Of a stretch of 52,895 bases of DNA, positions 6,020 through 52,864 are shown piece by piece; the first letter of the stretch is position 1; the number at the start of each line of letters is the position of its first letter. The DNA comes from Escherichia phage LF82-10. A model generated the notes under the pieces. It was not told where the DNA came from and did no database searches. It was given only the letters and a program-made list of their open reading frames with translations. The stretch lies in the sequence record PV660453; one strand, written 5' to 3'. Both the position numbers and the translations under genes were made by a program.

Positions 6020-6047
6020 TTGACCGTTTAGCAAAAAGTGCTATTAT
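6020..6047 (+). promoter_or_regulatory. sigma70-like promoter of major capsid gene (TTGACC-16-TATTAT) with TAGCA-box in spacer
   Basis: hexamers at 6020-6025 and 6042-6047; box TAGCAAAAAGTGCTA at 6029-6043. Confidence 0.5.
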
Positions 6048-14337: not shown

Positions 14338-15062
14338 TGTTACAGCCAAAAATTAAGATGGCAATCTTCGAACATGCGAAAGAGGTTTACCCGCACGAGT
14401 GTTGCGGCGTGGTGACTCAAAAGGGGCGAGTGCAGAAATATTGGCGAGTGGATAACGTACACTCTGATCCTGAAAATCATTTCCAGATGCATCCTGTGCA
14501 ATACGCCGAAATCGAAGACGACGCGGAGCTAACCACGATCGCCATCGTTCACAGTCACACAGGAGACGGTGCAACAACGCTACCGAGCGCGCACGACAAG
14601 TGCATAATGAATGAAATGCAAGTGCCATGGGTTATCGTTAGCTTGCCGGAGGGTGATTTGAGGGTTGTTAATCCAGAGTCAATCCCTCTGATTGGTAGAC
14701 CCTGGGCGCTTGGATCGTATGATTGCTGGGGGCTGGTGATGGCGTGGCACCGTGAGCAGGGCGTGATCTTGAATGACTTCAGAAAGCCCTACGAGTGGTG
14801 GAAGCCGGAGCATGGAGAAAACCTCTATCAAGAAAACTATCTTGCGGAGGGGTTCGTTGAAACAGGTAAAGATCCAGAGCCAGGGGATATGGTAATATTC
14901 CAGCTACAGGCTAACGTATGGAACCATGCGGGAATCTACGTGGGCAACAACCAAATCCTTCATCACGCATTCGGAAAGCTGTCAAGGCACGATATTTATT
15001 CTGGATGGTATCAGGATCACGCGGTAATGATTTGCAGACATAAGGACTTAAAACCATGCTGA
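14334..15062 (+). CDS. tail assembly protein (lambda gpK-like; JAB/MPN + NlpC/P60)
   Basis: 242 aa; JAMM-like HSHTGDGATTLPSAHD motif and C-terminal Cys/His region (YDCWGLV...NHAGIYVG...LHH) typical of NlpC/P60. Confidence 0.8.
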   Translation: MMLQPKIKMAIFEHAKEVYPHECCGVVTQKGRVQKYWRVDNVHSDPENHFQMHPVQYAEIEDDAELTTIAIVHSHTGDGATTLPSAHDKCIMNEMQVPWVIVSLPEGDLRVVNPESIPLIGRPWALGSYDCWGLVMAWHREQGVILNDFRKPYEWWKPEHGENLYQENYLAEGFVETGKDPEPGDMVIFQLQANVWNHAGIYVGNNQILHHAFGKLSRHDIYSGWYQDHAVMICRHKDLKPC

Positions 15063-15649
15063 AGACGATTAAACTTTCAGGCTCGTTGGGCAAACGCTTT
15101 GGCGTATTCCACAAATTTTGCGTAGACAGCTACCCGGAGGCAATTCGGGCGCTTTCATCCCAGGTTGAAGGATTTAAGGAATACATGCAAAGCGAGGTTG
15201 GATCGCGAATGAGCTACGCAATTTTTGTGGACGGCAAGAACATTGGCGCTACGGATGAGCACGCCTTCGCCATCGCGAAAGAGATTCGCATCATCCCGGT
15301 TCCGACTGGCTCAAAATCTGGCGGACTGTTTCAGATTGTGGTTGGCGCTGTGATCATGGTTGCGGCATTCTATACTGGCGGAGCGTCGCTGGCGCTAATG
15401 GGAACGTTCGCAACGTCAGCTTTCATGATGGGCGGTGCAATGGTGCTGGGCGGCGTGATGCAGATGATCTCACCGCAGCAGGGCGGAATGAAGATGGAAA
15501 TGCAGAGCAGCAAGAACAAGCCATCATACGCATTCGGCGGAGCAGTAAATACCACGGCGGCTGGCTATCCTTTGCCGCTACCATACGGACGACGAACGAA
15601 CGGCGGCGCGGTGTATTCAGCCGCGAGTGTTGCCGAAGATATGAGCTAA
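15056..15649 (+). CDS. tail assembly protein (lambda gpI-like)
   Basis: 197 aa with Gly/Ala/Met-rich hydrophobic C-terminal half; between K-like and J-like genes. Confidence 0.65.
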   Translation: MLKTIKLSGSLGKRFGVFHKFCVDSYPEAIRALSSQVEGFKEYMQSEVGSRMSYAIFVDGKNIGATDEHAFAIAKEIRIIPVPTGSKSGGLFQIVVGAVIMVAAFYTGGASLALMGTFATSAFMMGGAMVLGGVMQMISPQQGGMKMEMQSSKNKPSYAFGGAVNTTAAGYPLPLPYGRRTNGGAVYSAASVAEDMS

Positions 15650-19312: not shown

Positions 19313-19643
19313 ACATCACTTTATTGTAGATAACCGGGCTTCGGCTGGTTTGCTGGGTAATCATGTCAAGCTTGTATTCAGCGCCGCGATTCCACTCGAA
19401 GCGTAGCGTATAAGTGTTTACGTCGCCGTAGCACATTACGTGTTTGAACTTGCGCAGGTGCTTATCAAATATCACGTTTGTGCTTTCTTCAATATTCACC
19501 GTCCGATCCTGGCAGTTTACAACCGCCACGGTTGAGCCAGTAAGAGACATTCTGGAAGCGTCAACCGGATATCCGATATTAACGTTCAAAGCCATAGCGT
19601 TTAAAGGAGCTAAGAGAGCCATAGCGAGCATGATTTTTTCCAT
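19311..19643 (-). CDS. secreted protein, possible Cor-like superinfection exclusion factor
   Basis: ATG at 19643 (SD GAGGAA); signal-peptide-like N-terminus MEKIMLAMALLAPLNAMA; sits right after the J-like gene on the opposite strand; function speculative. Confidence 0.3.
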   Translation of the reverse strand: MEKIMLAMALLAPLNAMALNVNIGYPVDASRMSLTGSTVAVVNCQDRTVNIEESTNVIFDKHLRKFKHVMCYGDVNTYTLRFEWNRGAEYKLDMITQQTSRSPVIYNKVM

Positions 19644-19702
19644 TGGTGTTTCCTCGATTCGTTTATTTAAATTGATTATATCCACCAATCAGGGCGCGTG
19701 CT

Positions 19703-19717
19703 TAGCAATTCGTGCTA
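19703..19717 (-). promoter_or_regulatory. TAGCA-box (TAGCACGAATTGCTA) upstream of Cor-like gene
   Basis: -10 TATAAT at 19675-19680 (minus), 37 bp from box start; adjacent to stop of 19718..20368. Confidence 0.55.
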
Positions 19718-22232: not shown

Positions 22233-22247
22233 TAGCACTAAAAGCTA
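22233..22247 (+). promoter_or_regulatory. TAGCA-box (TAGCACTAAAAGCTA) upstream of Erf-like gene
   Basis: starts 1 nt after exonuclease stop; -10 TATAAT at 22269-22274 within inverted repeat. Confidence 0.55.
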
Positions 22248-22311
22248 AACAAAAGCGGTGATGTTTGGTATAATCACCGCTCAATCAAACGAACGAAAAG
22301 AGGCATAAGCA

Positions 22312-23503: not shown

Positions 23504-23536
23504 AAAAATAAAGGAGCCTTTCGGCTCCTTTTTTAT
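23504..23536. terminator. bidirectional terminator between ssb and tail fibre gene
   Basis: AAAAATAAA-GGAGCC-TTTC-GGCTCC-TTTTTTATTT. Confidence 0.6.
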
Positions 23537-25899
23537 TTCAGCAATAACGACTCAAGTTTAGCAAGGCGCTCTTCCATTTCCTCCATTCTGTTACCCATGT
23601 AAACCATAGCACAGGCCATATCAGTAAGCATGACGTTTGAATCAAGAGCTAGCGTATCGTCCTTAAATCCAGTCTCGATCTGCCTGGCAACGTACTCCTC
23701 ACCATTCTCGTTGACTCCGATAACATCTTCAAAGATCGGAGCGCCAGGGACTACTTTCACATACTGACTATCAACTTTATTCAAGTCCTGAGCAATCAGA
23801 CCGAATCTCTGTGTGTCAGATCCCTTATACTTGAACATGGTTGGGAGCCACTGCATTACGCGATCATAGCTCTCCTTTCCTTCGGTGTATTTGATATCCC
23901 ACTTAAGATCCCGGTCAGACGTTGGCGCTTTCTGGAATGTATACCCCCCATCCCATCCTCCACCCTGACCCCATGAGATAATATCTGATGATGGTGCATG
24001 GAATTCAAATCCGCGATGGTACGCACCATCACCAAGCATCTTAATTACTGCGCGAGGCCATCCGTTGTTCCCGCTAGAAATCATACCAAGAGAGGTATTC
24101 ATTCGATACCCGCCAGTTGATGTGGTTGCCCCTGAGATCAATGAAGCATATCCGGCATCATTACCCGTTACATCACCAGCAAAGAACGTACTCCCCATGT
24201 AATCATTTGGCTGCGCCCAACCTCCTTGAGTTAACTTACCAAGAAACCCCCTTGGAGAAGATATGTGACCGCCGTATGAGTTTATGAATTTAAACTCCTT
24301 CCAGTCACTTCCTTGGTTGTTCACTCCGATCTTGAAGTGATCAATATCAGTGCCACTACCGCGAACCCCCCCAATCTGCCAGTAACCAGAGTACCAGTTA
24401 CCTTGAACCAGGTTAACCCAACTATTAACAGAGCCATCACCAGCAGCGTTTTGAATCAGGATGTTTTTGTTTCCGCCACTCTGAGTTGAAACAACGATCG
24501 ATTTACCCTGCTTTGCCTCTACGTTTCCGTTTGTTGCAACCAGAGCGCCGCCGCTAATCGTTCCGACGGCTGTCAGCGATGCAACTCCGGTAATGTTCCC
24601 CGCCTCATCAAACTGATAGTAGTTCCCCTTTCCTCCAGCCGTGTTTGCCGTGTGAATCGTTGTCTTTACAACGCCGCCTTGTAGTTCATTGTAAAATCTT
24701 GAGTTTGATTGCAGCGTTGCGCCGTCAGCAGAAAGCCTTTTACTCTCAATCAGCCCCCCACTAGTTGCTGAGCCAAGTGTTGTAGCCTCCACGCCTCCAA
24801 ATCTCACCGCTTGACCCGAGCCGATACCAAGATTGTTTCTTGCTCCGTCAGCAGTTGTTGATCCAGTGCCACCAGATCCGATAGGGATCGGGATTACATT
24901 TCCGTTACTATCCTGCCACTGGAAAATCCCATCATCGCCAATCGTCAGCCTTTTTGTTCTATCTGGCGTGCTAATGTAGTTACGCGTTCCAATGTGGCGC
25001 AGCCAGTCAAGATCAAGGTTCGTCCTCGCGGCTTGTACGTCAGTAAGATCAGATAGGTTATTTGCCTTCTTTAGCTGTTCGTCAGGGTTAGCCGTTGCTG
25101 CGCGGTCTGCTTCAGCCTTGGCTCGTGCTGCATCGTCACGAGCGGCGGCGGCAGATTGCCCGGCGCTGGTTTCGCTGTTTGCTGCATTCGTCTCGCTTAC
25201 CCTGGCGGCATCCTTGCTGGCTCCGGCTTGGGTTGCGGCAACTTCGGCGGCTTGACGATGCGCGGCAGCTTCGCCGTTAGATTGAGCGGCTGAGCTTGCG
25301 CTATTACCCGCATTTGTCTCGCTAGTCTTCGCATTGAATGCAGAATCGGCGGCAGCGTTCTTTGCGCTTGTTGCGGTTGCAGCGTCAGCGGCGGAGCTAG
25401 ATGCAGATGCGGCAGCGGCGTTTTTATCTTGCTGTGCAGACTGAGCAGATCCGGCGGCGGCGTTCTTGCTTGCCTCAGCTTCGTTTGCGTTAACTTCAGT
25501 ACGATCAGCATCAACGCGAACGGCAGACTGAAGATCTTTCAGCTCTTGCAGGTTAAAGTTCTTGAAGAAATCCATAGCCTCCTCGATCACAGTTTCCTTG
25601 CTTTGGTAGTAGCGCAGAGTTTCAGCCACATCTTGAGCAAGGCCATCAACAGTGATTGAGTCATGCAGCAGGATTACATAGTTCGTACCATCCGGCACAA
25701 CTGCATCATCCGTTTGGATCGCTCGCATTTCCGTGTCACTCACGATCGCGGAAATAGTAACCAGCGTTAGTGGTTGAGTTAAAAACACCATCGTTGCCCC
25801 AACGCGAATCAGAGACAGCTTGTCTTGCCATTTCGTATCAACGCCAGTTACAACGCCGTTAGCGGCCAATCCCGCCGTTCCTCTACGATAAATCGCCAT
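23533..25899 (-). CDS. tail fibre with C-terminal intramolecular chaperone (S74-like) domain
   Basis: ATG at 25899 (SD AGGTG); Ala/Ser/Asn-rich low-complexity segment; C-terminal region (DRDLKWDIKY...LIAQDLNKV...LAKLESLL) resembles auto-cleaving fibre chaperone domains. Confidence 0.75.
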   Translation of the reverse strand: MAIYRRGTAGLAANGVVTGVDTKWQDKLSLIRVGATMVFLTQPLTLVTISAIVSDTEMRAIQTDDAVVPDGTNYVILLHDSITVDGLAQDVAETLRYYQSKETVIEEAMDFFKNFNLQELKDLQSAVRVDADRTEVNANEAEASKNAAAGSAQSAQQDKNAAAASASSSAADAATATSAKNAAADSAFNAKTSETNAGNSASSAAQSNGEAAAHRQAAEVAATQAGASKDAARVSETNAANSETSAGQSAAAARDDAARAKAEADRAATANPDEQLKKANNLSDLTDVQAARTNLDLDWLRHIGTRNYISTPDRTKRLTIGDDGIFQWQDSNGNVIPIPIGSGGTGSTTADGARNNLGIGSGQAVRFGGVEATTLGSATSGGLIESKRLSADGATLQSNSRFYNELQGGVVKTTIHTANTAGGKGNYYQFDEAGNITGVASLTAVGTISGGALVATNGNVEAKQGKSIVVSTQSGGNKNILIQNAAGDGSVNSWVNLVQGNWYSGYWQIGGVRGSGTDIDHFKIGVNNQGSDWKEFKFINSYGGHISSPRGFLGKLTQGGWAQPNDYMGSTFFAGDVTGNDAGYASLISGATTSTGGYRMNTSLGMISSGNNGWPRAVIKMLGDGAYHRGFEFHAPSSDIISWGQGGGWDGGYTFQKAPTSDRDLKWDIKYTEGKESYDRVMQWLPTMFKYKGSDTQRFGLIAQDLNKVDSQYVKVVPGAPIFEDVIGVNENGEEYVARQIETGFKDDTLALDSNVMLTDMACAMVYMGNRMEEMEERLAKLESLLLK

Positions 25900-25922
25900 T
25901 GTCAACACCTCTTGTTAGTAAA

Positions 25923-25937
25923 TAGCACGAATTGCTA
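25923..25937 (+). promoter_or_regulatory. TAGCA-box (TAGCACGAATTGCTA) over predicted start site of tail fibre transcript
   Basis: minus-strand -10 TATAAT at 25944-25949 lies upstream of box; operator-like position. Confidence 0.45.
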
Positions 25938-25965
25938 AAACGCATTATATCAGGCATTCAGGCAA

Positions 25966-25990
25966 TAAAAAACCCTCCGAAGAGGGTTGT
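25966..25990 (-). terminator. terminator for primase transcript (minus strand)
   Basis: minus-strand reading CAACCCTCTTCGGAGGGTTTTTT. Confidence 0.5.
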
Positions 25991-26934: not shown

Positions 26935-26989
26935 CGCAAAAACTCCAGTATAAAAAAGGGTTGCACCGATTATGGCACAACCCGCGAGA

Positions 26990-27448
26990 TCATTGATTAG
27001 CTTTTCGTGCTTTCAGTGTTTTCCAGGATGGTTGCTCCGGCTTGGTTTCTAACTCTTCCTTTCTCACCACGCGCAGCATGTGACGCTTTTTGCATCGGAC
27101 TGTTAGCGGCTTGCCGTTGCCGTCGAATGACAGATCAGGGCGGCACCACGACGCGCGGAAACCTCCGCCATTTCGTTTATATGCGTTGTGCGCCAGTTGC
27201 GCGCCTCGCGCTGAAATCATGCCGCGTTGCCGCCACTCATAAACAACCTGAAGCGAAACGCGCAATTCTTTCGCCAGCTTTGCAGGTGAGCCGTAGAATT
27301 CAAGGATGGTATCTAATCTAGCCTTAAGCCCGGCCTTTACTTCGTCTCGTAAAACATAGTAACCTACTGGACGTTTTCGGCGCTTAGCGTCACTTCCGCG
27401 CTTCGTTCCATTGTTCCCATTAAGCGTGCGTTTATCTACGGTTTCCAT
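26990..27448 (-). CDS. Cro/CI-type HTH DNA-binding protein (candidate regulator)
   Basis: 152 aa, basic; HTH-like segment LAKELRVSLQVVYEWRQRGMIS; its leader contains a TAGCA-box. Confidence 0.55.
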   Translation of the reverse strand: METVDKRTLNGNNGTKRGSDAKRRKRPVGYYVLRDEVKAGLKARLDTILEFYGSPAKLAKELRVSLQVVYEWRQRGMISARGAQLAHNAYKRNGGGFRASWCRPDLSFDGNGKPLTVRCKKRHMLRVVRKEELETKPEQPSWKTLKARKANQ

Positions 27449-27461
27449 AATTATTCCTCAA

Positions 27462-27476
27462 TAGCATTTTTTGTTA
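27462..27476 (+). promoter_or_regulatory. TAGCA-box variant (TAGCATTTTTTGTTA) in divergent HTH-helicase control region
   Basis: -10 TGTATTAT 27496-27503 for helicase at +36; same box lies between minus-strand -10 (27499-27504) and the HTH gene SD. Confidence 0.55.
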
Positions 27477-27540
27477 AAACTGGATTGTTGAGGCGTGTAT
27501 TATATCAATCAAACGAACGAACATCAAAGGCATTAACACG

Positions 27541-29610
27541 ATGAAAATCAAGAGCATCAAGAAGCAGATTGAGGAGTTAGGCGAGGATAAGATCGCAGAG
27601 CTTCAAAAGAAATTCACTTTTGGTGACATTGTTCCTTATGCGTATCAGTGCGTCATGTACGACGAGATCGCAAAGCGCATTTCCGCATACAAACACCCAT
27701 TCTTTGTTAAGGCTTCCGTGTCGGCTGGCAAAACAGTTGGGTTTGCCATGGTGGCGGCGCGGTGCAGGGAAATGACTAGCGCAAAGTTTCCAAAGGGTTT
27801 ATCAATGGCAATCCTCGCTCGCCAGGGTGAGATCGTATCTCAGGATAGCCAGGAGCTAACAAACTTCGGCGTGCCGAATAGCGTTTACTGCGCCGGGCTT
27901 GGTACTAAATCTGCATACTTCCCGATCGTCGTTGGCTCTGAGGGTTCAGTTGCAAACGGGCTTTTCAAGGCTCTCGGAGACTTCGCGCCAATGGTTGTCG
28001 GCATCGACGAATGTCACCAGGTGGATTGGGAAGACCTTGCAGACTCGATCGAGAAGAACGAAAGCTATGAGGAAATGAGCAGACCAAAGGATGAGGCTTA
28101 CATGATCAATGGCGAAGTAGTCGATCGCGGGTTGAAGATATCAAGCCTCATGGAAACCCTGGGAACAGTTGCACCAGGTGCCGGGCGCTCTCAGTACACG
28201 ATAATCATTCGTGAGTTGCAGCGTCGATGCCTGGAAGTTCACGGAAAGGAACTACGCATATTCGGCATGACTGGTTCAGAGTTTCGCGGCACAACTCCGA
28301 TCCTTGTTGAGAATATGAAACTCAAAGGCTTCTGGCGCGAGCAGGTAACGAACATTGATACGAACTACCTCATTGAGTTTGGCTCGGTTGTTCCAACCGT
28401 CTTCGGCTCAACTGGCGGGTTAGGCTACGATCTGGAAGAGTTCAAAGCGTCAAGCGAAGATGGAACAAAAGACTTTGACGCGAAAGTAATGAAGAAGATG
28501 GAGGAGAAGATCCACAAGGATGCTTCCATGACGGCAAGAATTATGGCGGCGGTTGTGGAGGAAGCGAAGAAGCGAAACGGCGTTCTAATTACTTGCTCAG
28601 GGCAACGACACTGTAAAGAGGCGGCTAGTTACCTGCCTGAAGGCTCAACGTATGCGATCATTACTGAGAAGACCGGAACGAAACAGCGCCAGCAAATCCT
28701 TGATGATGCAAACCAGGGAAAGATAAAGTACATCTTCCAGGTTGTGGCATTGACGACTGGCGTTAACGTGCCGTTTTGGGATTTCTCCGTGATACTCCGT
28801 AAGATTGGCTCTCTCACATTGCTGATACAGTTGCTTGGGCGCGGAATGCGACTTTTAAAGGCGTGGCAAATCGCAATGGGGATGGTGAAGACAGATCACC
28901 TTGTTTGGGATTTTGCCGGAACTATGGACGAATTAGGCCAACTTTACTTTGACCCGATTCTTGAGGAAGCTCAGTATCAACGCCGTTTCGACTCGAAGAA
29001 GGAGCCTAAAAAATGCCCTATTTGCGGTCATGAAAACAGTTTCTTTGCTCGTCGCTGTATCAGTCGGGATTTGAACGGAAACAGATGTGAGTATTTCTGG
29101 AAGTCGAGAACGTGCGAGGATCAGGTTGACGATCGAACCGGGAAAGTTATTGTGAAGGGTTGCGGTGTTCAAAATGATGTTGTAGCTCGAATCTGTAGGG
29201 GTTGTGATGCTAGCCTAACAGATCCCAACGCCAACTTAACCGGGAAGGCGTACACAAAAAACGACTGGTGCCAGGTTCTCAGCTTTGAGGTTGGGCTTAC
29301 CAAAAACCAGACCGGGATCATTTATAAATATCGCTTGCGTGATATGCTCGGAGAGGAGTTTAACGCATACGAGAAGTTTTTCCCTGAGTCTCAGGCTCAG
29401 GTATGCCACACGATATGGAAAACAAAAGGCGTGCTTCCACACGTTCACGATTCGAAAGTGGCAAAGCTTATGGCAGCATACAGGAGCGCGCGCCTGATCT
29501 TACAAAACGCGCACCACATCGCGCACCCGGTACGGGTTACGCATCGCAAAAACGCAAAGGGCGAAGATATCATTTCGCGCAAGGACTTCGGTCTTAATGA
29601 GGGCTTATGA
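27541..29610 (+). CDS. ATP-dependent DNA helicase (SF2, DExH)
   Basis: 689 aa; Walker A SVSAGKTVG, DECH box (GIDECHQV); C-terminal Cys-rich zinc-finger-like cluster. Confidence 0.8.
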   Translation: MKIKSIKKQIEELGEDKIAELQKKFTFGDIVPYAYQCVMYDEIAKRISAYKHPFFVKASVSAGKTVGFAMVAARCREMTSAKFPKGLSMAILARQGEIVSQDSQELTNFGVPNSVYCAGLGTKSAYFPIVVGSEGSVANGLFKALGDFAPMVVGIDECHQVDWEDLADSIEKNESYEEMSRPKDEAYMINGEVVDRGLKISSLMETLGTVAPGAGRSQYTIIIRELQRRCLEVHGKELRIFGMTGSEFRGTTPILVENMKLKGFWREQVTNIDTNYLIEFGSVVPTVFGSTGGLGYDLEEFKASSEDGTKDFDAKVMKKMEEKIHKDASMTARIMAAVVEEAKKRNGVLITCSGQRHCKEAASYLPEGSTYAIITEKTGTKQRQQILDDANQGKIKYIFQVVALTTGVNVPFWDFSVILRKIGSLTLLIQLLGRGMRLLKAWQIAMGMVKTDHLVWDFAGTMDELGQLYFDPILEEAQYQRRFDSKKEPKKCPICGHENSFFARRCISRDLNGNRCEYFWKSRTCEDQVDDRTGKVIVKGCGVQNDVVARICRGCDASLTDPNANLTGKAYTKNDWCQVLSFEVGLTKNQTGIIYKYRLRDMLGEEFNAYEKFFPESQAQVCHTIWKTKGVLPHVHDSKVAKLMAAYRSARLILQNAHHIAHPVRVTHRKNAKGEDIISRKDFGLNEGL

Positions 29611-30026
29611 TTACTGACAAGGGCGATTATCTTGAATATTACACCCCTGATAAGGGGTGTACCCTGAAGGAAGAGACTCACCAGGTTAACGGCGTTTCGT
29701 GGCTAAAGTACCACTACCCAAACCTGATGTTTTGGCACACGGTCAACGAGGGGCAGAAGCACATAAACACAGCCCTAAAAGATGAGCAAGCCGGGCTTAA
29801 GAAAGGTGTCAGCGACTTCGTATTTCTGATTGGTCATTTCGATCGGAAATATTGCTTTGGGGCTATTGAGCTGAAGCGCACCAACAAGAGCGGAAAGTAC
29901 AAGGCATCACCAGTCAGTAAGGAGCAGAAAGCTTTCCTTCTCGGTGTGCGTGAACGTGGGGGGTTCGCGGCTGTGGCTTACGGATTCGAGGAGTTGAAGA
30001 AAGCCGTTGAGGACATGATGAAATAG
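29607..30026 (+). CDS. VRR-NUC domain nuclease
   Basis: 139 aa; PD-(D/E)XK-like core (DFVFLIG...GAIELK) consistent with VRR-NUC; overlaps helicase stop. Confidence 0.55.
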   Translation: MITDKGDYLEYYTPDKGCTLKEETHQVNGVSWLKYHYPNLMFWHTVNEGQKHINTALKDEQAGLKKGVSDFVFLIGHFDRKYCFGAIELKRTNKSGKYKASPVSKEQKAFLLGVRERGGFAAVAYGFEELKKAVEDMMK

Positions 30027-30038
30027 CACTATTTGCTA
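30024..30038 (+). promoter_or_regulatory. TAGCA-box (TAGCACTATTTGCTA) upstream of dam
   Basis: TAG is stop of VRR-NUC gene; -10 CATAAT 30061-30066 after hairpin TGCCGG/CCGGCA. Confidence 0.55.
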
Positions 30039-30096
30039 AACCTGTGCCGGAACAATCCGGCATAATGCAACTACACAAACAAACAGGAATGAGATC

Positions 30097-30812: not shown

Positions 30813-31025
30813 ATGGCTACTGCATTCGGACTGTATAAGGCAAAAGTTATTCGCGCTCTGATGGCGGCTGGATTCAAGCACAACGCGGAGGAATTCGCTG
30901 ATTGCCTTGATATGAGCTTTGACGAGATCAAGCATCTTCACCACACGCAATGGGGAGAATCAATCAAGCGCGATCTCGAAGAGTACCGGAAAGAGAATCC
31001 GCACGAATTCGCAACACAGCACTAA
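30813..31025 (+). CDS. hypothetical protein
   Basis: 70 aa ORF, ATG immediately after dam. Confidence 0.4.
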   Translation: MATAFGLYKAKVIRALMAAGFKHNAEEFADCLDMSFDEIKHLHHTQWGESIKRDLEEYRKENPHEFATQH

Positions 31026-31031
31026 TTGCTA
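31017..31031 (+). promoter_or_regulatory. TAGCA-box variant (CAGCACTAATTGCTA)
   Basis: -10 TATTAT 31054-31059 after hairpin ACCCGG/CCGGGT. Confidence 0.5.
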
Positions 31032-31087
31032 AACGTACCCGGCGAAAGTCGGGTATTATTATTTTACACCAACAAGAGGAATCACCC

Positions 31088-31893: not shown

Positions 31894-33030
31894 ATGTCAC
31901 TGAAGAAAATCACCGACGAGCAGTTAAACGCCGAGCGAGAGTCGGGTAAAACTTACCGCCAGATCGCGGAAGAGTACGGAATGAACATACGCACCGTCGA
32001 GGCTCGCGGCGCACGCCTGGCTAAGAAAGGTTTCGGTCACGGTAACGGCGATGCATCGCGATTTGTTCCAGAAGGCTTCATGGTTAAGGGCACATCAACC
32101 ATGCACCGCGCGAACGGAGAGGTTATCGTTAGCTGGACGAAAACCAATCAGGATCATGAGAAGTTAGCCGCCATGCTTGAGCACGCGATCGAGGCGTTTT
32201 GCGTTGAGCTTCCACGCGCAGCCGCTACACCTTCCAACGTTGGTGAGGTGATGGAGAACCAGCTCGCGCTTTATCCTGTATTCGATCTGCATATCGGTGC
32301 AATGGCTCATAAGCATGAGTGCGGCGAGAACTACTCAACCGATATTGCCGAGAAGGTTTTGGGCGATTTCTTCAAGTACGCTGTGAACGTTGCGCCGAAG
32401 GCGAAGAAGGCGGTTGTGCTGGTTGGCGGTGACTACCTCCACTCTGACGGCCTGGACGCTGTAACACCCGCAAGCGGTCACGTTCTGGATCAGGACTCAC
32501 GTTACGCTAAGCTGGTTCACGTTGCCATTCGCTCACTCCGTCGCGGCGTTGCGCTTCTGCTTGATAAGCATGAAGAGATTGAGATCCAGATTATCGAAGG
32601 CAACCACGATCAGGCGGGTATGATTTGGCTACGCGCTGCAATGGCGGCATACTTCGAAGATGAGCCGCGCGTCACGGTTGACACATCGCCTATGATCCTT
32701 CACCGTACCAAGTGGGGCAAAACGCTGTTAGGCTACACTCACGGTCACACGATGAAGAAAGCAGAAACCCGCCTCCAGGCGCTGGCTACTGACTTCCGTT
32801 CTGAGTTCGGCACGAGTGAATTCGTTTATACTCACTCAGGGCATTGGCATCACCAGACGCTTACAGAGCACACCTTAGGCATTGACGAGGTTCACGGTCA
32901 GTTAGGTGCCAAAGATGCGTATGCGGCTCGCGGTGGATGGCGCTCATATCGCCAGGCGGCGGTAATTGTCTATGATAAAGAATTTGGCGAGGTAGGCCGA
33001 TTCGTTTATCGTCCTCAGATGAGCAAATAG
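31894..33030 (+). CDS. HTH domain fused to calcineurin-like metallophosphoesterase
   Basis: 378 aa; N-terminal HTH-like KTYRQIAEEYGMNIRTVEARGARL; phosphoesterase motifs DLH, GGDYLHSD, GNHD, HGH, GHWH in canonical order. Confidence 0.7.
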   Translation: MSLKKITDEQLNAERESGKTYRQIAEEYGMNIRTVEARGARLAKKGFGHGNGDASRFVPEGFMVKGTSTMHRANGEVIVSWTKTNQDHEKLAAMLEHAIEAFCVELPRAAATPSNVGEVMENQLALYPVFDLHIGAMAHKHECGENYSTDIAEKVLGDFFKYAVNVAPKAKKAVVLVGGDYLHSDGLDAVTPASGHVLDQDSRYAKLVHVAIRSLRRGVALLLDKHEEIEIQIIEGNHDQAGMIWLRAAMAAYFEDEPRVTVDTSPMILHRTKWGKTLLGYTHGHTMKKAETRLQALATDFRSEFGTSEFVYTHSGHWHHQTLTEHTLGIDEVHGQLGAKDAYAARGGWRSYRQAAVIVYDKEFGEVGRFVYRPQMSK

Positions 33031-33042
33031 CACTTTTTGTTA
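33028..33042 (+). promoter_or_regulatory. TAGCA-box (TAGCACTTTTTGTTA)
   Basis: TAG is stop of 31894..33030; -10 TATACT 33065-33070 after hairpin AGCCGA/TCGGCT. Confidence 0.55.
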
Positions 33043-33099
33043 AAAGCCGATCGCGTTGGTCGGCTATACTCATTTCATCAACTCAGAGGAGTAACGGAA

Positions 33100-36758: not shown

Positions 36759-36814
36759 GTTAAAAACTCCTTGTTTGGTTGCTCAATGATAGAGCAACCA
36801 ATGATAGTGCGTTT

Positions 36815-36829
36815 TGGCAAAAAGTGCTA
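36815..36829 (-). promoter_or_regulatory. TAGCA-box (TAGCACTTTTTGCCA) upstream of 528-aa gene
   Basis: -10 TATCAT at 36786-36791 (minus). Confidence 0.5.
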
Positions 36830-37250: not shown

Positions 37251-37307
37251 TTTTAGTTCCTCGTTGTTGGTGTGAATGAATAATAACAAAACCCGCCGAA
37301 GCGGGTT

Positions 37308-37322
37308 TAACAAAAAGTGCTA
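37308..37322 (-). promoter_or_regulatory. TAGCA-box (TAGCACTTTTTGTTA)
   Basis: TAG is stop of 37320..38012; followed by hairpin CCCGCTTCGGCGGG and -10 TATTAT 37280-37285 (minus). Confidence 0.55.
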
Positions 37323-38933: not shown

Positions 38934-38991
38934 CTTCATTTCCTTGTTTGTTGGTGTAACTGCATTATTGCAGATCACGCCGATTTAGTTT

Positions 38992-39006
38992 TAACAAAAA
39001 GTGCTA
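38992..39006 (-). promoter_or_regulatory. TAGCA-box (TAGCACTTTTTGTTA)
   Basis: TAG is stop of 39004..39351; weak -10 AATAAT at 38964-38969 (minus). Confidence 0.5.
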
Positions 39007-39807: not shown

Positions 39808-39866
39808 TTGCTTATCTCCGTTTCGTTTTAGTGGTTACATTATGCCGGGTTTCCGCCCGGCACGTT

Positions 39867-39881
39867 TAGCAATTAGTGCTA
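39867..39881 (-). promoter_or_regulatory. TAGCA-box (TAGCACTAATTGCTA)
   Basis: abuts stop of 39882..40088; -10 CATAAT 39839-39844 (minus) after hairpin. Confidence 0.55.
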
Positions 39882-40088: not shown

Positions 40089-40154
40089 TTTGCTATCCTT
40101 TTGTGTGCTTCGTTTCGATGGAGTAATAATAGCAAAAGCCAGATCGGGAGTTTT

Positions 40155-40169
40155 AGCAAAAAGTGCTAT
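40155..40169 (-). promoter_or_regulatory. TAGCA-box (TAGCACTTTTTGCTA)
   Basis: -10 TATTAT 40126-40131 (minus). Confidence 0.5.
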
Positions 40170-41514: not shown

Positions 41515-41574
41515 TGCTGTTTCCTCAGTTCGTTTCGTTGAGATAACTATAGCCGAAACATCCTGAGTGGTTTT

Positions 41575-41589
41575 AGCAAAAAGTGCTAT
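41575..41589 (-). promoter_or_regulatory. TAGCA-box (TAGCACTTTTTGCTA), first of leftward accessory operon
   Basis: -10 TATAGT 41546-41551 (minus). Confidence 0.55.
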
Positions 41590-41602
41590 TGATTCGATTT
41601 AT

Positions 41603-41664
41603 CCAATTATTCCATTATTCCAACTATTCTGGAATATTCCTGAATAACCGAATATCTGGAATAG
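41603..41664. repeat. cluster of GGAATA/TATTCC motifs including perfect palindrome GGAATATTCC (41631-41640)
   Basis: ATTATTCCA x2, GGAATATTCC, CTGGAATAG in 62 bp; GGAATAATTGGAATAG recurs at 42931-42946. Confidence 0.6.
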
Positions 41665-41709
41665 TCAAAATGACTATGGCTCTCCGTTCGTTTTAGCGAA
41701 CAAACGTTC

Positions 41710-41730
41710 GATGTGATGTGATGTGATGTG
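41710..41730 (+). repeat. (GATGT)4 microsatellite
   Basis: GATGTGATGTGATGTGATGTG. Confidence 0.8.
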
Positions 41731-41899
41731 AATGAGGGTGAGGAGGCGATCAGATCTGATCCCGAAACTTTTTCCCTCACCGCACGATTTGCTAATGAAT
41801 TGTCGTGCCTGTAGTTGTATGTTGTGTTTTACGTTTTCCGTGGAAATCGGTACGCGCTACTACGCGGAATAACAATGTTATGCTTTATATATAGATATA

Positions 41900-41950
41900 T
41901 AAGTATATATAAAATAAAGGTTTTTTATTATATATATTATCTAATTTCAT
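41900..41950 (+). repeat. AT-rich element (TAAGTATATATA...GGTTTTTT...ATCTAAT), copy B
   Basis: homologous to 20839-20880. Confidence 0.6.
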
Positions 41951-42162
41951 AACACTTTATAACGTGTTGTGTTTGTTCCGCCGGACGCGGAGTGATTGAT
42001 ATGTTTCGCGGCCTATTTATGCCTATATTGTGAAATATGGGTAGGGGGATATATACCCCTCCGAAATCCGCAACAAACGCTTAATACGCACTACAACCCA
42101 GCAGGAATGCACCATGTAGAGGAGATTTTGTTGATAATGGCAATAATCGACACAAATTAATC

Positions 42163-42191
42163 TTGACTACAATTAAGCTTTTCCGCATTAT
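42163..42191 (+). promoter_or_regulatory. sigma70-like promoter TTGACT-17-CATTAT for rightward accessory operon
   Basis: hexamers at 42163-42168 and 42186-42191, 33 bp upstream of 42224. Confidence 0.55.
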
Positions 42192-42223
42192 GGCGGCTCA
42201 ACCAATCAGATGAGGTATCACCC

Positions 42224-42945: not shown

Positions 42946-42960
42946 TAGCACGAACTGCTA
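42946..42960 (+). promoter_or_regulatory. TAGCA-box (TAGCACGAACTGCTA)
   Basis: preceded by GGAATA repeats; -10 CATAAT 42983-42988 inside palindrome GGGGCTATGCCATAATAGCCCC. Confidence 0.55.
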
Positions 42961-43019
42961 AAACACCAGATCGGGGCTATGCCATAATAGCCCTACACCA
43001 ACAAAACGAGGTTAGCACA

Positions 43020-43441: not shown

Positions 43442-43746
43442 TGATTTTGAATGACCGAGAGGAGCTACAGGAAGCCGTGAGACTGGCGCTAAAATCAGAC
43501 GTGCCATTTATCGAAGTTGTGCTTTGCGTGGCTGCCAGCCTCGATGTACGGCCCCGTGTGGCTGCTTTCATGGTTCACTCTAACACCTTCGATATGGCTG
43601 GCACATTCCAGGGTGATAAATTCCTTGAATTCTTGATGCAGCTAACCGATAAGTTCGAAGCCATGCATCCTGACCGGATAAGCGCCAGTGGGCAGATCCT
43701 GATCGAGGAGTTCACCAACTTTGTGATTCGCGGTACATGGCGATAG
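43438..43746 (+). CDS. hypothetical protein
   Basis: ATG 43438 overlaps upstream stop; 102 aa; stop TAG embedded in box 43744-43758. Confidence 0.4.
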   Translation: MMILNDREELQEAVRLALKSDVPFIEVVLCVAASLDVRPRVAAFMVHSNTFDMAGTFQGDKFLEFLMQLTDKFEAMHPDRISASGQILIEEFTNFVIRGTWR

Positions 43747-43758
43747 CACTTTTTGTTA
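43744..43758 (+). promoter_or_regulatory. TAGCA-box (TAGCACTTTTTGTTA)
   Basis: TAG is stop of upstream gene; -10 CATACT 43781-43786 after hairpin TGCCGG/CCGGCA. Confidence 0.55.
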
Positions 43759-43816
43759 AACGTGTGCCGGGCTAATCCGGCATACTGTCACCACACCAAC
43801 CAATCAAGAAGTCAAC

Positions 43817-44095: not shown

Positions 44096-44415
44096 TGAAA
44101 AAGTTTGTCGGATCGTGTTTGCTGGTTTCTGTCCTGGCGCTGGCGTTCATCGCTCTCGCAGGGTGTGACGACTCAACCCGCGTGCCTCGTGAGCAGCGTA
44201 GCAAGGTGCGGGTCACAACGGCTGAATCCGGGCGCGTGCAGGTGCGCAAGATCAGCGAATTCCGTGACGACCTGGCTTATGACAGCTATCGAGGCGTGTA
44301 CATCATCACGGACACTGAAACCGGGCAGGAGTTCATAGGCGTTAGCGGTGTTGGTATCAGTGCTATCGGGCAACACAATTGCGGCAAAAACTGCTGGAAG
44401 AAAGATGAGAGATAG
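44095..44415 (+). CDS. putative lipoprotein
   Basis: ATG overlaps upstream stop (TAATG); signal peptide with lipobox LAGC. Confidence 0.5.
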   Translation: MKKFVGSCLLVSVLALAFIALAGCDDSTRVPREQRSKVRVTTAESGRVQVRKISEFRDDLAYDSYRGVYIITDTETGQEFIGVSGVGISAIGQHNCGKNCWKKDER

Positions 44416-44427
44416 CACTTTTTGTTA
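44413..44427 (+). promoter_or_regulatory. TAGCA-box (TAGCACTTTTTGTTA)
   Basis: TAG is stop of lipoprotein gene; -10 CATAAT 44450-44455. Confidence 0.55.
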
Positions 44428-44484
44428 AAACTGCCCGGAGCGATTCGGGCATAATGATTTCACACCAAACGAGAGGAAGTGAAA

Positions 44485-45227: not shown

Positions 45228-45324
45228 TGCAATCGGCGCGGCATGTCTTCTTGCTTCCGTCACTGTGGTTGCGGTTGGCGCTGTTTGGCTAATGGCAAAA
45301 ATATTGCGTGAGATTGACGAATAG
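45220..45324 (+). CDS. small hydrophobic peptide (34 aa)
   Basis: ATG overlapping upstream stop; one TM segment; stop TAG embedded in box 45322-45336; alternative is a 70-aa TTG-initiated ORF 45112..45324. Confidence 0.25.
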   Translation: MINAIGAACLLASVTVVAVGAVWLMAKILREIDE

Positions 45325-45336
45325 CACGAATTGCTA
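45322..45336 (+). promoter_or_regulatory. TAGCA-box (TAGCACGAATTGCTA)
   Basis: -10 TATCAT 45359-45364 inside inverted repeat CGGCATG/CATGCCG. Confidence 0.55.
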
Positions 45337-45396
45337 AAACGGCATGGCTCCTGAGTGGTATCATGCCGTTACACCAAACAAACAGGAGTCACCCAA

Positions 45397-45762
45397 ATGA
45401 AAGTTAAATGCATTAGTTCAGACGTTTTGCTTGATGGTTACTACACCCCAGGTAGAGTCTACCGATTAAGGCGAGAAAGGGGCAAAAGCTATAGAACCGT
45501 TAAATCAAACAGAGGCGTTGATCTTGGTGTTATCCACGACCCATTAAAAAGAGGTCGGTTTTTCGTTGCTGGATTTGAACGTTGTGTGTTTGATTCGGCT
45601 CCGCACCGATTCGTGAAGCGCAACCAAAGCGCCGCGCTGGGGCAGATTGAGATCGACTATACGCGATGCAAGCGCAGCATTCGCAATCAGGCTCGCAACA
45701 TCGCAAAAGAGCACTTCTCGTGCGGCAAGCTTGAGAAGATTGCGCGAGGCTATAAGCGATAG
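45397..45762 (+). CDS. hypothetical basic protein (MKVKCI, MKxKC-family)
   Basis: 121 aa from ATG 45397, SD CAGGAG. Confidence 0.45.
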   Translation: MKVKCISSDVLLDGYYTPGRVYRLRRERGKSYRTVKSNRGVDLGVIHDPLKRGRFFVAGFERCVFDSAPHRFVKRNQSAALGQIEIDYTRCKRSIRNQARNIAKEHFSCGKLEKIARGYKR

Positions 45763-45774
45763 CACTTTTTGCTA
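45760..45774 (+). promoter_or_regulatory. TAGCA-box (TAGCACTTTTTGCTA)
   Basis: -10 TATAGT 45797-45802 inside inverted repeat AAGGGCA/TGCCCTT. Confidence 0.55.
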
Positions 45775-45842
45775 AAACTTCCGCAAGGGCATTTGATATA
45801 GTGCCCTTATTGAAGCAGAGCAAACCAATCAGAGGATTCAAC

Positions 45843-46666: not shown

Positions 46667-46855
46667 ATGCAGATCTACAAATCGCCAGGCGGAGCAAGAT
46701 ATGTCGTTGTTGATGGCGTTGTTTACTGCAAGCCAGCAGATGGAAGCATGGTTTACAGGCCGCGCATGACGGTTGAGCGATATCTTGAGCTTATCGCTGG
46801 CGGTCTTCTGACATTCCATTGCGTTATTCGCCCGGTAATGTTCAAAAAGCACTAA
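46667..46855 (+). CDS. hypothetical protein
   Basis: 62 aa. Confidence 0.35.
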   Translation: MQIYKSPGGARYVVVDGVVYCKPADGSMVYRPRMTVERYLELIAGGLLTFHCVIRPVMFKKH

Positions 46856-46861
46856 TTGCTA
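46847..46861 (+). promoter_or_regulatory. TAGCA-box variant (AAGCACTAATTGCTA)
   Basis: -10 TATAGT 46884-46889 inside inverted repeat AAGAGGCA/TGCCTCTT. Confidence 0.5.
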
Positions 46862-46927
46862 AAACTTGCTAAGAGGCATTTGTTATAGTGCCTCTTGTCG
46901 AGTTAACACAAATACAGAGGATTTGAA

Positions 46928-47632
46928 ATGAGCATTCAACGCTACTACCCTGAAGTGAAGTACACAGTGCGGGAAACTCGCGTTAATATGGCTCCACACG
47001 AGCGCGGAAGCTATGTGACCTATGAATCACACATCGAAGAATTGCGCCGCGTACAGGCCGAATTAGACGCCTTAAAAGCGATGCAAAAAAGCGATTTTTT
47101 CTATCACCTAAAGCCAGTCTTCGAAAAGGCGCTTGAAGAGGCGATTGCTATCGTCGTGAAGCAAGCCAGCCAATCAGTTTTCAAGGTTGACGCTGAGGCG
47201 CTAATTGCTGCTGACGTTGGCCGTTGGATGGAGAAGCACATGAACGAGCGCGCCGGATTTGCAACTGGCAGCCTGTTTGTGGGTGATGTAGAGGTTGATT
47301 TCGACAACAACAAAGTCAAGATCACCGATGCGCTAATCAAGAGCGGCGTTGTGACTGAAAGCGAATTATTCTCTTTCCCTAAGGCACGAAAGAACATTGT
47401 CGTTTGCACAAGCGCCGATGAAGGTAGCGGTTTCACTATTGGAAAGAAATACGCATTCGATCGCAATGAAGGGAACATTATCCGAATCTGCCAGGATGAT
47501 TTTGTTTCAGATCTCGCAGAGGATGATTGCTGGATTGCAAGCCGCCGCCGAAACCTGGTAAGCGGTGAATTCAGATACTTCTTACAGGGGCATACAGAAG
47601 GCAAGCGCGCATCTTTCGAGATCGTTGAATAG
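46928..47632 (+). CDS. hypothetical protein
   Basis: 234 aa; contains internal CT...GKKY motif of the MKxKC family; stop TAG embedded in box. Confidence 0.45.
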   Translation: MSIQRYYPEVKYTVRETRVNMAPHERGSYVTYESHIEELRRVQAELDALKAMQKSDFFYHLKPVFEKALEEAIAIVVKQASQSVFKVDAEALIAADVGRWMEKHMNERAGFATGSLFVGDVEVDFDNNKVKITDALIKSGVVTESELFSFPKARKNIVVCTSADEGSGFTIGKKYAFDRNEGNIIRICQDDFVSDLAEDDCWIASRRRNLVSGEFRYFLQGHTEGKRASFEIVE

Positions 47633-47644
47633 CACGAATTGTTA
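47630..47644 (+). promoter_or_regulatory. TAGCA-box (TAGCACGAATTGTTA)
   Basis: -10 TATCAT 47667-47672 inside inverted repeat GGCATGTG/CATGTGCC. Confidence 0.55.
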
Positions 47645-47702
47645 AACGGGCATGTGTTCCGACTGGTATCATGTGCCAACACAAACAAGCAAGGGGCTTT
47701 AA

Positions 47703-49111: not shown

Positions 49112-49126
49112 TAGCACTTTTTGTTA
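49112..49126 (+). promoter_or_regulatory. TAGCA-box (TAGCACTTTTTGTTA) fused to terminator-like hairpin
   Basis: 41 bp identical (inverted) to 37282-37322; hairpin CCCGCTTCGGCGGG 49129-49142 then TTTTGTTATTC. Confidence 0.5.
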
Positions 49127-49183
49127 AACCCGCTTCGGCGGGTTTTGTTATTCTTGCTTTAACGAAACGAAATGGAGTGAAGA

Positions 49184-49721: not shown

Positions 49722-49891
49722 AGACTTTTATTATTTTCCTAGTTGGCGCTTGCATGGTTAGCGTTTCTGATAACTTCACAGTTTTCGTTGGCGCTGCGAT
49801 GGTGTCGTGGGCTTACTACCGATGCGGAAAGGCTGACGGAATAGCGGAAGGTAAACGCCAGGCGCTGGCATCCGGCACTAAGTTAAAGTAG
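49718..49891 (+). CDS. small membrane protein (GTG start)
   Basis: 57 aa, two hydrophobic segments; GTGA overlap with upstream stop; TAG embedded in box 49889-49903. Confidence 0.25.
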   Translation: MKTFIIFLVGACMVSVSDNFTVFVGAAMVSWAYYRCGKADGIAEGKRQALASGTKLK

Positions 49892-49903
49892 CACGATTTG
49901 TTA
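49889..49903 (+). promoter_or_regulatory. TAGCA-box (TAGCACGATTTGTTA)
   Basis: -10 TGGTATAAT 49923-49931 inside inverted repeat GGGGAT/ATCCCC. Confidence 0.55.
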
Positions 49904-49961
49904 AAAGGGGATTCGTCCTGACTGGTATAATCCCCACATCAACCAAGCAGAGGAAACGATC

Positions 49962-50476: not shown

Positions 50477-50905
50477 ATGAAATTACGTTGCACATTCCTT
50501 GAGCCAGCTTTCGCAAAAGCTCTGGCTGAGTTCTACACCATCGGCAAAACTTACGCCGCATCCATCAAGCCGGGATCAAAGGTTGGCGCTGTGCTGGTGG
50601 AGTCAAACGAAGGCAATGAAGGCGATCAGCTTGCAGCAGTTCCGAGCCGCTCAGGGTTCGAGGTTCAAATTAAGAACCAAATTCCGATCGCAAAGTTCGA
50701 GGTTGTTGGCAAGCGTGCGGTGAAGCTTGTTAAGACTGAGAAGCGCGTAACGCTGAAACTTGATGGCGTGGGGAAATCAGATAAGCGCCGATTCCGCCGT
50801 GTTTGCCGCCAGTATCGAAAGTTGAAATTCATCAACCCTGGATTCTATTATGATCTGGAATCCGATCGCCACATGGCTAAACTTGCGCGACATCACCGCC
50901 GATAG
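50477..50905 (+). CDS. hypothetical basic protein (MKLRCT, MKxKC-family)
   Basis: 142 aa; SD AGAAGGAA. Confidence 0.45.
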   Translation: MKLRCTFLEPAFAKALAEFYTIGKTYAASIKPGSKVGAVLVESNEGNEGDQLAAVPSRSGFEVQIKNQIPIAKFEVVGKRAVKLVKTEKRVTLKLDGVGKSDKRRFRRVCRQYRKLKFINPGFYYDLESDRHMAKLARHHRR

Positions 50906-50917
50906 CACTTTTTGCTA
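50903..50917 (+). promoter_or_regulatory. TAGCA-box (TAGCACTTTTTGCTA)
   Basis: -10 TATAGT 50940-50945 inside inverted repeat CGGGGTT/AACCCCATCG. Confidence 0.55.
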
Positions 50918-50978
50918 AAACTCGAAATCGGGGTTGCGATATAGTAACCCCATCGAAACGCAACGGAGCAAACGAAAA

Positions 50979-52843: not shown

Positions 52844-52855
52844 GCGTCTGCAATC

Positions 52856-52864
52856 TGGTATAAT
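52856..52864 (+). promoter_or_regulatory. extended -10 promoter (TGGTATAAT) for terminase operon
   Basis: follows terminator 52820-52843; precedes SD and the ATG at position 1. Confidence 0.5.

Follow-up and report, generated by a model that had tools for sequence, protein, structure and literature searches.

Which protein reads the repeated box that lies between a leftward helix-turn-helix (HTH) gene and a rightward helicase gene in Escherichia phage LF82-10? The question concerns the sequence record PV660453 (52,895 nucleotides, analysed as a whole and hereafter called the window), in which the first-pass annotation saw a divergent switch with lambda OR-like logic, whereby a dimer of the 152-amino-acid (aa) HTH protein bound to a 15-bp palindrome could repress its own gene and activate the helicase promoter. 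Our analysis points to another reader: the box is, judged by its sequence, an asymmetric marbox, the type of site to which MarA, SoxS, Rob and RamA bind as monomers, rather than the palindrome of a dimer, and the helicase/regulator pair is more likely to be switched by a host protein than by the Cro-like protein of the phage. The window belongs to a T1-like siphovirus and is nearly identical to Escherichia phage LF82-11 (PV660454; 100% identity across 3.7 kb). Its record annotates the 152-aa open reading frame (ORF) as the sole "transcriptional regulator" of the genome, with a primase gene and an unnamed 689-aa protein as neighbours.

The coordinates given earlier for the two genes, the box and both -10 hexamers all proved correct on re-reading the sequence (Table 1), and the divergent promoter pair was likewise confirmed. 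The gap between the genes, 92 bp long, holds two back-to-back promoters whose -10 hexamers share 5 bp on opposite strands. The leftward promoter, TTGATG-17-TATAAT, gave 10/12 matches in a consensus scan, plus the TG extension; it is close to the sigma-70 consensus and would be independent of any activator. On the helicase side, the -10 is contained in TGTATTAT (27496-27503) and no usable -35 was found, TAAAAC giving 2/6 matches at 17-bp spacing. The box is the only site of its kind in 27449-27540. It stands downstream of the core HTH promoter and, if the start is taken about 7 nt past the -10, covers HTH transcript positions of about +17 to +31 (+16 to +30 had been claimed), while its centre falls at about -40/-41 of the helicase promoter, at the class II activator position and close to the -42 first given. 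It should be noted that the reverse complement of the marbox (TTAACA) forms, together with AATAAT, a second promoter-like match on the minus strand (27450-27477, 10/12), whose start would fall within the HTH coding sequence and which is probably incidental.

The identity of the element can be read directly from its copies. Searched as the 15-bp box with up to three mismatches, it occurs 15 times where 2.0 are expected, a number reached by none of 100 shuffles, and 7 further copies carry a different central 5-mer. The marbox motif derived from chromatin immunoprecipitation, GCAHWWWWTGYYAAA (PMC6900184), finds 22 matches in the window with at most one mismatch (17 exact, 5 with one mismatch) against 1.28 expected, and again no shuffle out of 100 reaches this count. 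The older marbox consensus of 19-20 nt, AYnGCACnnWnnRYYAAAY (PMC3709825), extends beyond this core and allows a comparison at flank positions that lay outside our search pattern. Over a family set of 245 distinct promoters, positions -3 and -2 are A in 98% and Y in 97% (T 83%, C 14%), as this consensus requires, and core position 11, exactly at a consensus Y, is C in 55% and T in 44%. The conservation is not that of a palindrome: its left half, TAGCAC, is invariant, but on the right TGCTA alternates with TGTTA (the latter in 44% of the family promoters), box position 6 (core position 4) is C and its mirror position T, conservation runs 3' of the box into AAA(A)C, and A rather than T predominates in the 5' flank. 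Between the invariant flanks, the centre of the box varies (TTT, GAA, TAA). Two sites, 31019 (caGCAC) and 46849 (aaGCAC), lack the "TA" of the palindrome and keep the full promoter architecture; they therefore argue against a reader of the palindrome. We identify the box as a marbox because its sequence, its pattern of degeneracy, its orientation and its distance to the -10 all match, and such a 22-bit agreement at every degenerate position would very unlikely arise by coincidence. Other known elements were considered and rejected: TTGYTA at the 3' end of the box cannot serve as a -35, being 21-23 bp from the -10; a sigma-54 promoter (TGGCAC-N5-TTGCW) is ruled out by AG instead of GG, by a GG-GC spacing 2 nt too short and by the sigma-70 -10 at a fixed distance; and none of the sites of Fis, IHF, CRP and FNR fits, as compared by eye with their consensus sequences.

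The geometry of the copies is that of known activated promoters. Class II marbox promoters have a forward site over the -35 region, near -41, and lack a -35 (PMC6900184, PMC10268841, PMC8811837). In the window, 20 of the 22 marboxes face the next gene, the distance to the -10 that follows being 20 nt at 17 sites, 19 nt at two (helicase and Erf) and 21 nt at one; their centres are at -39 to -41, and the start codon is 54-67 nt past the marbox. All 20 of these -10 hexamers have A at position 2 and T at position 6, and half are TG-extended. The helicase promoter, with a good -10, no -35 and a forward marbox near -40, has by its sequence the class II marbox design. Read directly from the E. coli sequence, the micF promoter is GCACTGAATGTCAAA-N20-TAGAAT with its annotated +1 located 8 nt past the hexamer, and the phage promoters share with it and with other MarA/SoxS/Rob/RamA class II promoters the GCAHWWWWTGYYAAA core, the forward orientation, the 20-nt gap and a centre at about -41. 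They likewise lack a recognisable -35 and frequently have a TG extension, the mean match to TTGACA being 1.35/6 in the phage (n = 20) and 1.9/6 in Salmonella class II promoters. By contrast with the host promoters, there are about 20 of them per 53 kb in a virulent genome, their sites resemble the consensus and one another much more closely, the stop codon upstream often coincides with the first three bases of the site, and a hairpin is usually nested in the spacer.

The repeat itself had already been described in 2024. [quoted passage not shown] This is the same element as the box studied here, intergenic, co-directional and about 76 nt before start codons. The authors offered a stoperator, an enhancer site or an UP element and left its function open; they made no link to the marbox, to the fixed -10 distance, to the reversed late copies or to the HTH/helicase region (PMC11447400). 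We found in the searchable literature no paper linking the repeat to the marbox, Rob, MarA, SoxS or the HTH gene, and its identity as a marbox appears unreported.

The arrangement was then compared over 83 sequences, i.e., the window, T1 and 81 loci from the IMG/VR database, with 58 distinct upstream sequences. The box is present in the HTH leader in all 83, at 13-16 nt from the start codon in 80 of them; a helicase-strand -10 stands 19-20 nt past the marbox in 83/83, and an HTH-strand -10 that overlaps it and has a fair -35 is found in every sequence. Since it is kept throughout this set, we consider the layout of divergent overlapping promoters to be real and under selection. The leader marbox has only 3 variants in the family, all of them perfect marboxes, and T1 has the box at no fewer than 19 sites, including one 13 nt before its own HTH gene. 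A scan of IMG/VR with the exact 19-mer gave matches nearly all in contigs of T1-like size (~46-53 kb), with one each in two large contigs, a distribution that fits a host or a phage reader alike and does not discriminate between them. Covariation of the box with the HTH protein proved uninformative as evidence, the box being invariant over T1, Klebsiella phages and 80 IMG/VR loci. In many relatives (L018, L048, L074 and others), the HTH and primase genes have a further forward marbox between them, at +400 to +600 from the HTH start, by which the primase gains its own box promoter; none is found in the 55-bp gap of the window (26935-26989). Another forward box lies in T1 (locus L002, 8363-8377), 18 nt before the start codon of the small terminase and without room for a -10, the counterpart in the window being a plain TGgTATAAT promoter (52853-52864).

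Reversed copies were found in late promoters. The major head promoter is near-consensus (TTGACC-16-TGcTATTAT) and its spacer consists wholly of a reversed marbox; the same reversed marbox stands in the major head promoter of T1, at 15071 (locus L002, ~15058-15090). Before the tail-fibre gene, a terminator is followed by a TGnTA(T/C)AAT extended -10, by a reversed marbox 4-6 nt further on and then by a ribosome-binding site (25925-25965), a layout kept over several genera (L005, L007, L010-L012, L017, L033; ~+1500 to +2000 from the HTH start). Besides pbpG, the genes rob, purA and hdeA are cases of marbox-mediated repression. In pbpG, a marbox within the promoter spacer is reported to repress (PMC12052159), and the phage sites are likewise placed in the spacer or core of sigma-70 promoters (major head, 6020-6047, and tail fibre), with the difference that these are late promoters, shared by the window and T1. 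By this analogy, the reversed marboxes sit where binding would be associated with repression. Whatever reads the box seems to act as an activator on early and middle genes and as a repressor on late ones; it would therefore be needed at time zero, which may suit a host protein better than a phage protein.

The product of the neighbouring gene, which had been proposed as the prime candidate for binding the box, is indeed Cro-like. Its AlphaFold2 model (predicted local distance difference test, pLDDT, 86.9) has an all-alpha HTH core of Cro type, not of AraC/MarA type, and Foldseek and a profile search of the PDB agree on the Cro-type (Cro/P22 Cro) fold. The protein occurs in 828 phage records at 50-75% identity. 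Its recognition helix exists in 21 variants in the family, differing at the predicted base-contact positions (QQ, EE, WG, NQ, YE, TI and others), against the 3 variants of the box, which speaks against its candidacy. The most conserved parts are not this helix but the disordered basic N-terminus, DKRTxNGNNGTxRG, and the C-terminal extension; the conserved segments lie at residues 5-24 and 96-119, the latter reading GFRAS.CRPDL.FD.NGKP. A distant homologue in Pseudoalteromonas phage C7 has the HTH domain alone in common. No separate operator for the protein was found, the divergent region having no inverted repeat besides the 5+5 core of the box and the intergenic DNA no other repeated 10-mer, leader and terminator motifs aside. 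Neither the 152-aa protein nor any of 40 other phage proteins gave an HTH_18/AraC match in Pfam scans, and those 40 showed no other DNA-binding domain. The position of its gene between those of primase and helicase makes a role in replication as plausible as one in transcription.

We regard it as unlikely that a dimer of this protein binds TAGCA-N5-TG(C/T)TA, activating the helicase and about 20 other box promoters from about -41 and, from the leader, repressing its own gene. With half-sites spaced by one helical turn, a 15-bp site does suit a Cro-type dimer. The protein has the fold and is the sole annotated regulator, it is encoded by a core gene that co-occurs with the box family-wide, it could come first owing to its near-consensus, activator-independent promoter, and the HTH leader and promoter contain no symmetric element other than the box. 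Yet the conservation of the box is asymmetric, with TAGCAC invariant, TGTTA in 44%, C facing T at the mirror position and A-rich flanks on both sides, and the two sites without "TA" keep their architecture. Each degenerate position fits the marbox of an unrelated host family, the base-contact residues vary while the site does not, and the early-arm and repressed late promoters would be left without a factor at time zero. Like lambda OR (cI/Cro at PR/PRM), the region has divergent promoters, a site at about -42 of one of them whose bound protein would interfere with the other, and a neighbour gene encoding a Cro-fold protein. Lambda has three cooperative operators, however, whereas the phage region has one asymmetric site with no operator array, located not over the core of the HTH promoter but downstream of it, and the likely reader of this site is a host monomer, not the product of the neighbour gene. 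What stands is the notion of a switch by one bound factor, which is plausible given the overlapping -10 hexamers; a dimer of the 152-aa protein as this factor is unsupported.

On balance, and with some reserve, we favour a host MarA-family monomer which, bound to the marbox, would drive the helicase promoter and exclude polymerase from the constitutive HTH promoter. From a mechanistic point of view, the activator-independent leftward promoter would express the HTH-primase operon from DNA entry onwards. By the class II route, a marbox-bound MarA-family monomer would then bring RNA polymerase to the helicase promoter. Polymerase engaged there would cover the promoter of the HTH-primase operon, given the overlap of the two -10 hexamers, and the bound monomer, at +17 to +31, may add a weak block to the HTH transcript. 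Helicase transcription would rise at the cost of HTH-primase transcription, and the consensus-like HTH promoter would win when the factor is absent. The same element would drive about 20 other early and middle promoters in the genome, and where its reversed form overlies the core of a strong late promoter, as for major head and tail fibre, it would repress. We infer both the protein that binds and the competition between the two promoters from the sequence, geometry and conservation of the element. Rob is the sole abundant member of the MarA family in unstressed cells, and RamA is an additional candidate reader in Klebsiella and Salmonella.

Several points weigh against this scenario. MarA and SoxS are scarce in unstressed cells, and T1-like phages grow well under standard conditions despite the scarcity or sequestration of MarA, SoxS and Rob. 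Rob is reported to be largely sequestered in inactive aggregates when inducers are absent (PMC12052159, PMC10268841). In the searchable literature, we found no host-factor phenotype of marA, soxS or rob for T1-like phages. At the helicase promoter itself, GCAT replaces GCAC in 42 of the 83 sequences, and the gap in the window is 19 nt, not 20. Furthermore, the invariant A directly before GCAC goes beyond the marbox consensus and, together with the partial palindrome of 5+5 bp, the only symmetry in the HTH leader and promoter, may leave room for a second reader of the box.

Such a second reader could be the Cro-like protein, which would later compete for the palindromic core or act on the host factor and so shut off the early promoters that a MarA-family protein had read first, with a change of the expression program. 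A perfect marbox and a 5+5 partial palindrome do coexist in one site, the HTH gene has its constitutive promoter beside a marbox, and the conserved disordered N-terminus (D5, R7, N10-T15, R17) looks like an arm contacting protein or DNA. We nevertheless hold this combination to be very unlikely: it is reached by reasoning alone, a second protein on the reversed late marboxes would still block the late promoters, and an invariant DNA target is hard to square with the variable recognition helix. Little credence can likewise be given to a box without a dedicated factor, contacted directly by RNA polymerase as an UP-like element or a substitute for the -35, or serving as a stoperator-type site: a T-rich centre near -40 and A-tracts do resemble UP-element subsites, and the half of the promoters that are TG-extended may have basal activity alone, but UP elements need no invariant GCAC...TG..AAA, a variable centre between invariant flanks is typical of a protein reading two major grooves, a stoperator is hard to reconcile with the constant 20 nt to the -10, and reversed copies in late promoters would be senseless as UP elements. 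The published description of the TLS repeat, which leaves its function open, offers options of this kind (PMC11447400).

Table 1. Genes, promoter elements and marbox copies in the window (positions in nt; strand + is the strand of the record).
Feature	Position	Strand	Detail
HTH gene	26990-27448	-	ORF, 152 aa, start 27448; Cro-type HTH at residues ~47-81; core gene of T1-like phages
Superfamily 2 (SF2) helicase gene	27541-29610	+	ORF, 689 aa; Pfam Helicase_C (E 1.1e-10) and ResIII
Shine-Dalgarno GAGGAA of HTH gene	27454-27459	-	Read from sequence
15-bp box TAGCATTTTTTGTTA	27462-27476	+	Sequence and match count
Marbox core GCATTTTTTGTTAAA, facing helicase gene	27464-27478	+	Perfect match to GCAHWWWWTGYYAAA (motif PMC6900184)
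20-bp marbox form AYnGCAC..AAAY	27461-27480	+	Motif PMC3709825
Helicase promoter -10 TATTAT	27498-27503	+	19 nt past marbox core
HTH promoter -10 TATAAT, TG-extended (TGaTATAAT)	27499-27504	-	Consensus scan; kept in 83/83 sequences
HTH promoter -35 TTGATG	27522-27527	-	17-nt spacer to -10; consensus scan
Reversed marbox filling 16-nt spacer of major head promoter	6027-6041	-	TTGACC(6020)-16-TATTAT(6047)
Marbox reversed relative to leftward tail-fibre gene	25925-25939	+	Begins 4 nt past TGaTATAAT, covering expected start site
Class II-type marbox promoter, Erf gene	22235-22249	+	TATAAT at 19 nt
Class II-type marbox promoter	30026-30040	+	-10 at 20 nt
Class II-type marbox promoter	31019-31033	+	-10 at 20 nt; caGCAC
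Class II-type marbox promoter	33030-33044	+	-10 at 20 nt
Class II-type marbox promoter	36813-36827	-	-10 at 21 nt
Class II-type marbox promoter	37306-37320	-	-10 at 20 nt
Class II-type marbox promoter	38990-39004	-	-10 at 20 nt
Class II-type marbox promoter	39865-39879	-	-10 at 20 nt
Class II-type marbox promoter	40152-40166	-	-10 at 20 nt
Class II-type marbox promoter, first of leftward early arm	41572-41586	-	-10 at 20 nt
Class II-type marbox promoter	43746-43760	+	-10 at 20 nt
Class II-type marbox promoter	44415-44429	+	-10 at 20 nt
Class II-type marbox promoter	45324-45338	+	-10 at 20 nt
Class II-type marbox promoter	45762-45776	+	-10 at 20 nt
Class II-type marbox promoter	46849-46863	+	-10 at 20 nt; aaGCAC
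Class II-type marbox promoter	47632-47646	+	-10 at 20 nt
Class II-type marbox promoter	49114-49128	+	-10 at 20 nt
Class II-type marbox promoter	49891-49905	+	-10 at 20 nt
Class II-type marbox promoter	50905-50919	+	-10 at 20 nt
Weaker marbox (2 mismatches), TATAAT downstream	19701-19715	-	Before leftward gene starting at 19559
Weaker marbox (2 mismatches), CATAAT downstream	42948-42962	+	Box alignment

Further features of the marbox promoters and their surroundings deserve mention. The first TAG of the box is the stop codon of the upstream ORF at 30024, 33028, 37322, 39006, 43744, 44413, 45322, 45760, 47630 and 50903. The end of one gene and the promoter of the next may in this way form one compact cassette, which could account for the extra conservation of the "TA" before GCAC, and these overlaps of stop codon and box may serve as sites for module exchange. 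In 16 of the 20 marbox promoters, a stable GC-rich hairpin is nested in the interval from marbox to -10 or surrounds the -10 (mean z -3.0 relative to shuffles; 42 nt past the marbox searched; e.g., 30041-30082, 33045-33086, 45777-45818 and 46864-46905); there is none in this span at 41572, at 40152 or at the helicase promoter (z +1.3). These hairpins look like terminators or processing sites of the upstream co-directional gene packed into the next promoter. Past the -10s, C/A-rich 5' leaders (e.g., 27505-27525, 22281-22300 and 31065-31075) share TCAATCAAACGAACGAA, ACACCAACAA and AACCAATCAGAGG, a hint of shared signals for translation initiation or stability. Between the two divergent early arms lies a non-coding region of 709 bp (41515-42223), with short repeats (41602-41629), repeats of (GATGT)x4.4 (41710-41731) and a TA-rich array (41886-41912); the genome ends of T1 map to this area, which may therefore hold pac, terminal or origin functions. 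Elsewhere, 84 bp of the PV660454 tail-fibre gene are missing from the window (23533-25908, vs. 23533-25983 in PV660454), and the coordinates downstream are offset by 84.

At the scale of the family, these observations offer a tentative perspective, which we put forward as a possibility and do not yet hold to be probable: the virulent T1-like phages (Drexlerviridae) may as a whole family have built their transcription program on the host proteins MarA, SoxS and Rob, with about 20 early and middle class II promoters, repression of late promoters by reversed marboxes, an early-late switch by titration or neutralisation of the factor (e.g., by the 152-aa protein), and the divergent region as the node at which occupancy by the host factor selects between the two replication operons. 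A practical caution for annotation is that a repeated intergenic motif should not be assigned by default to the nearest HTH gene. If the scheme is true, it would assign a function to the repeat described in 2024, and replicating phage genomes that titrate a limited host factor would provide a simple model of early/late timing for a phage without a polymerase or sigma factor of its own. It would also tie phage expression to multidrug-resistance regulators that respond to salicylate, bile salts, redox drugs and some antibiotics. T1-like phages are common candidates for therapy against E. coli and Klebsiella; their success would in that case hinge on how stressed and how resistant the host is, which would bear on the combined use of phages and antibiotics.

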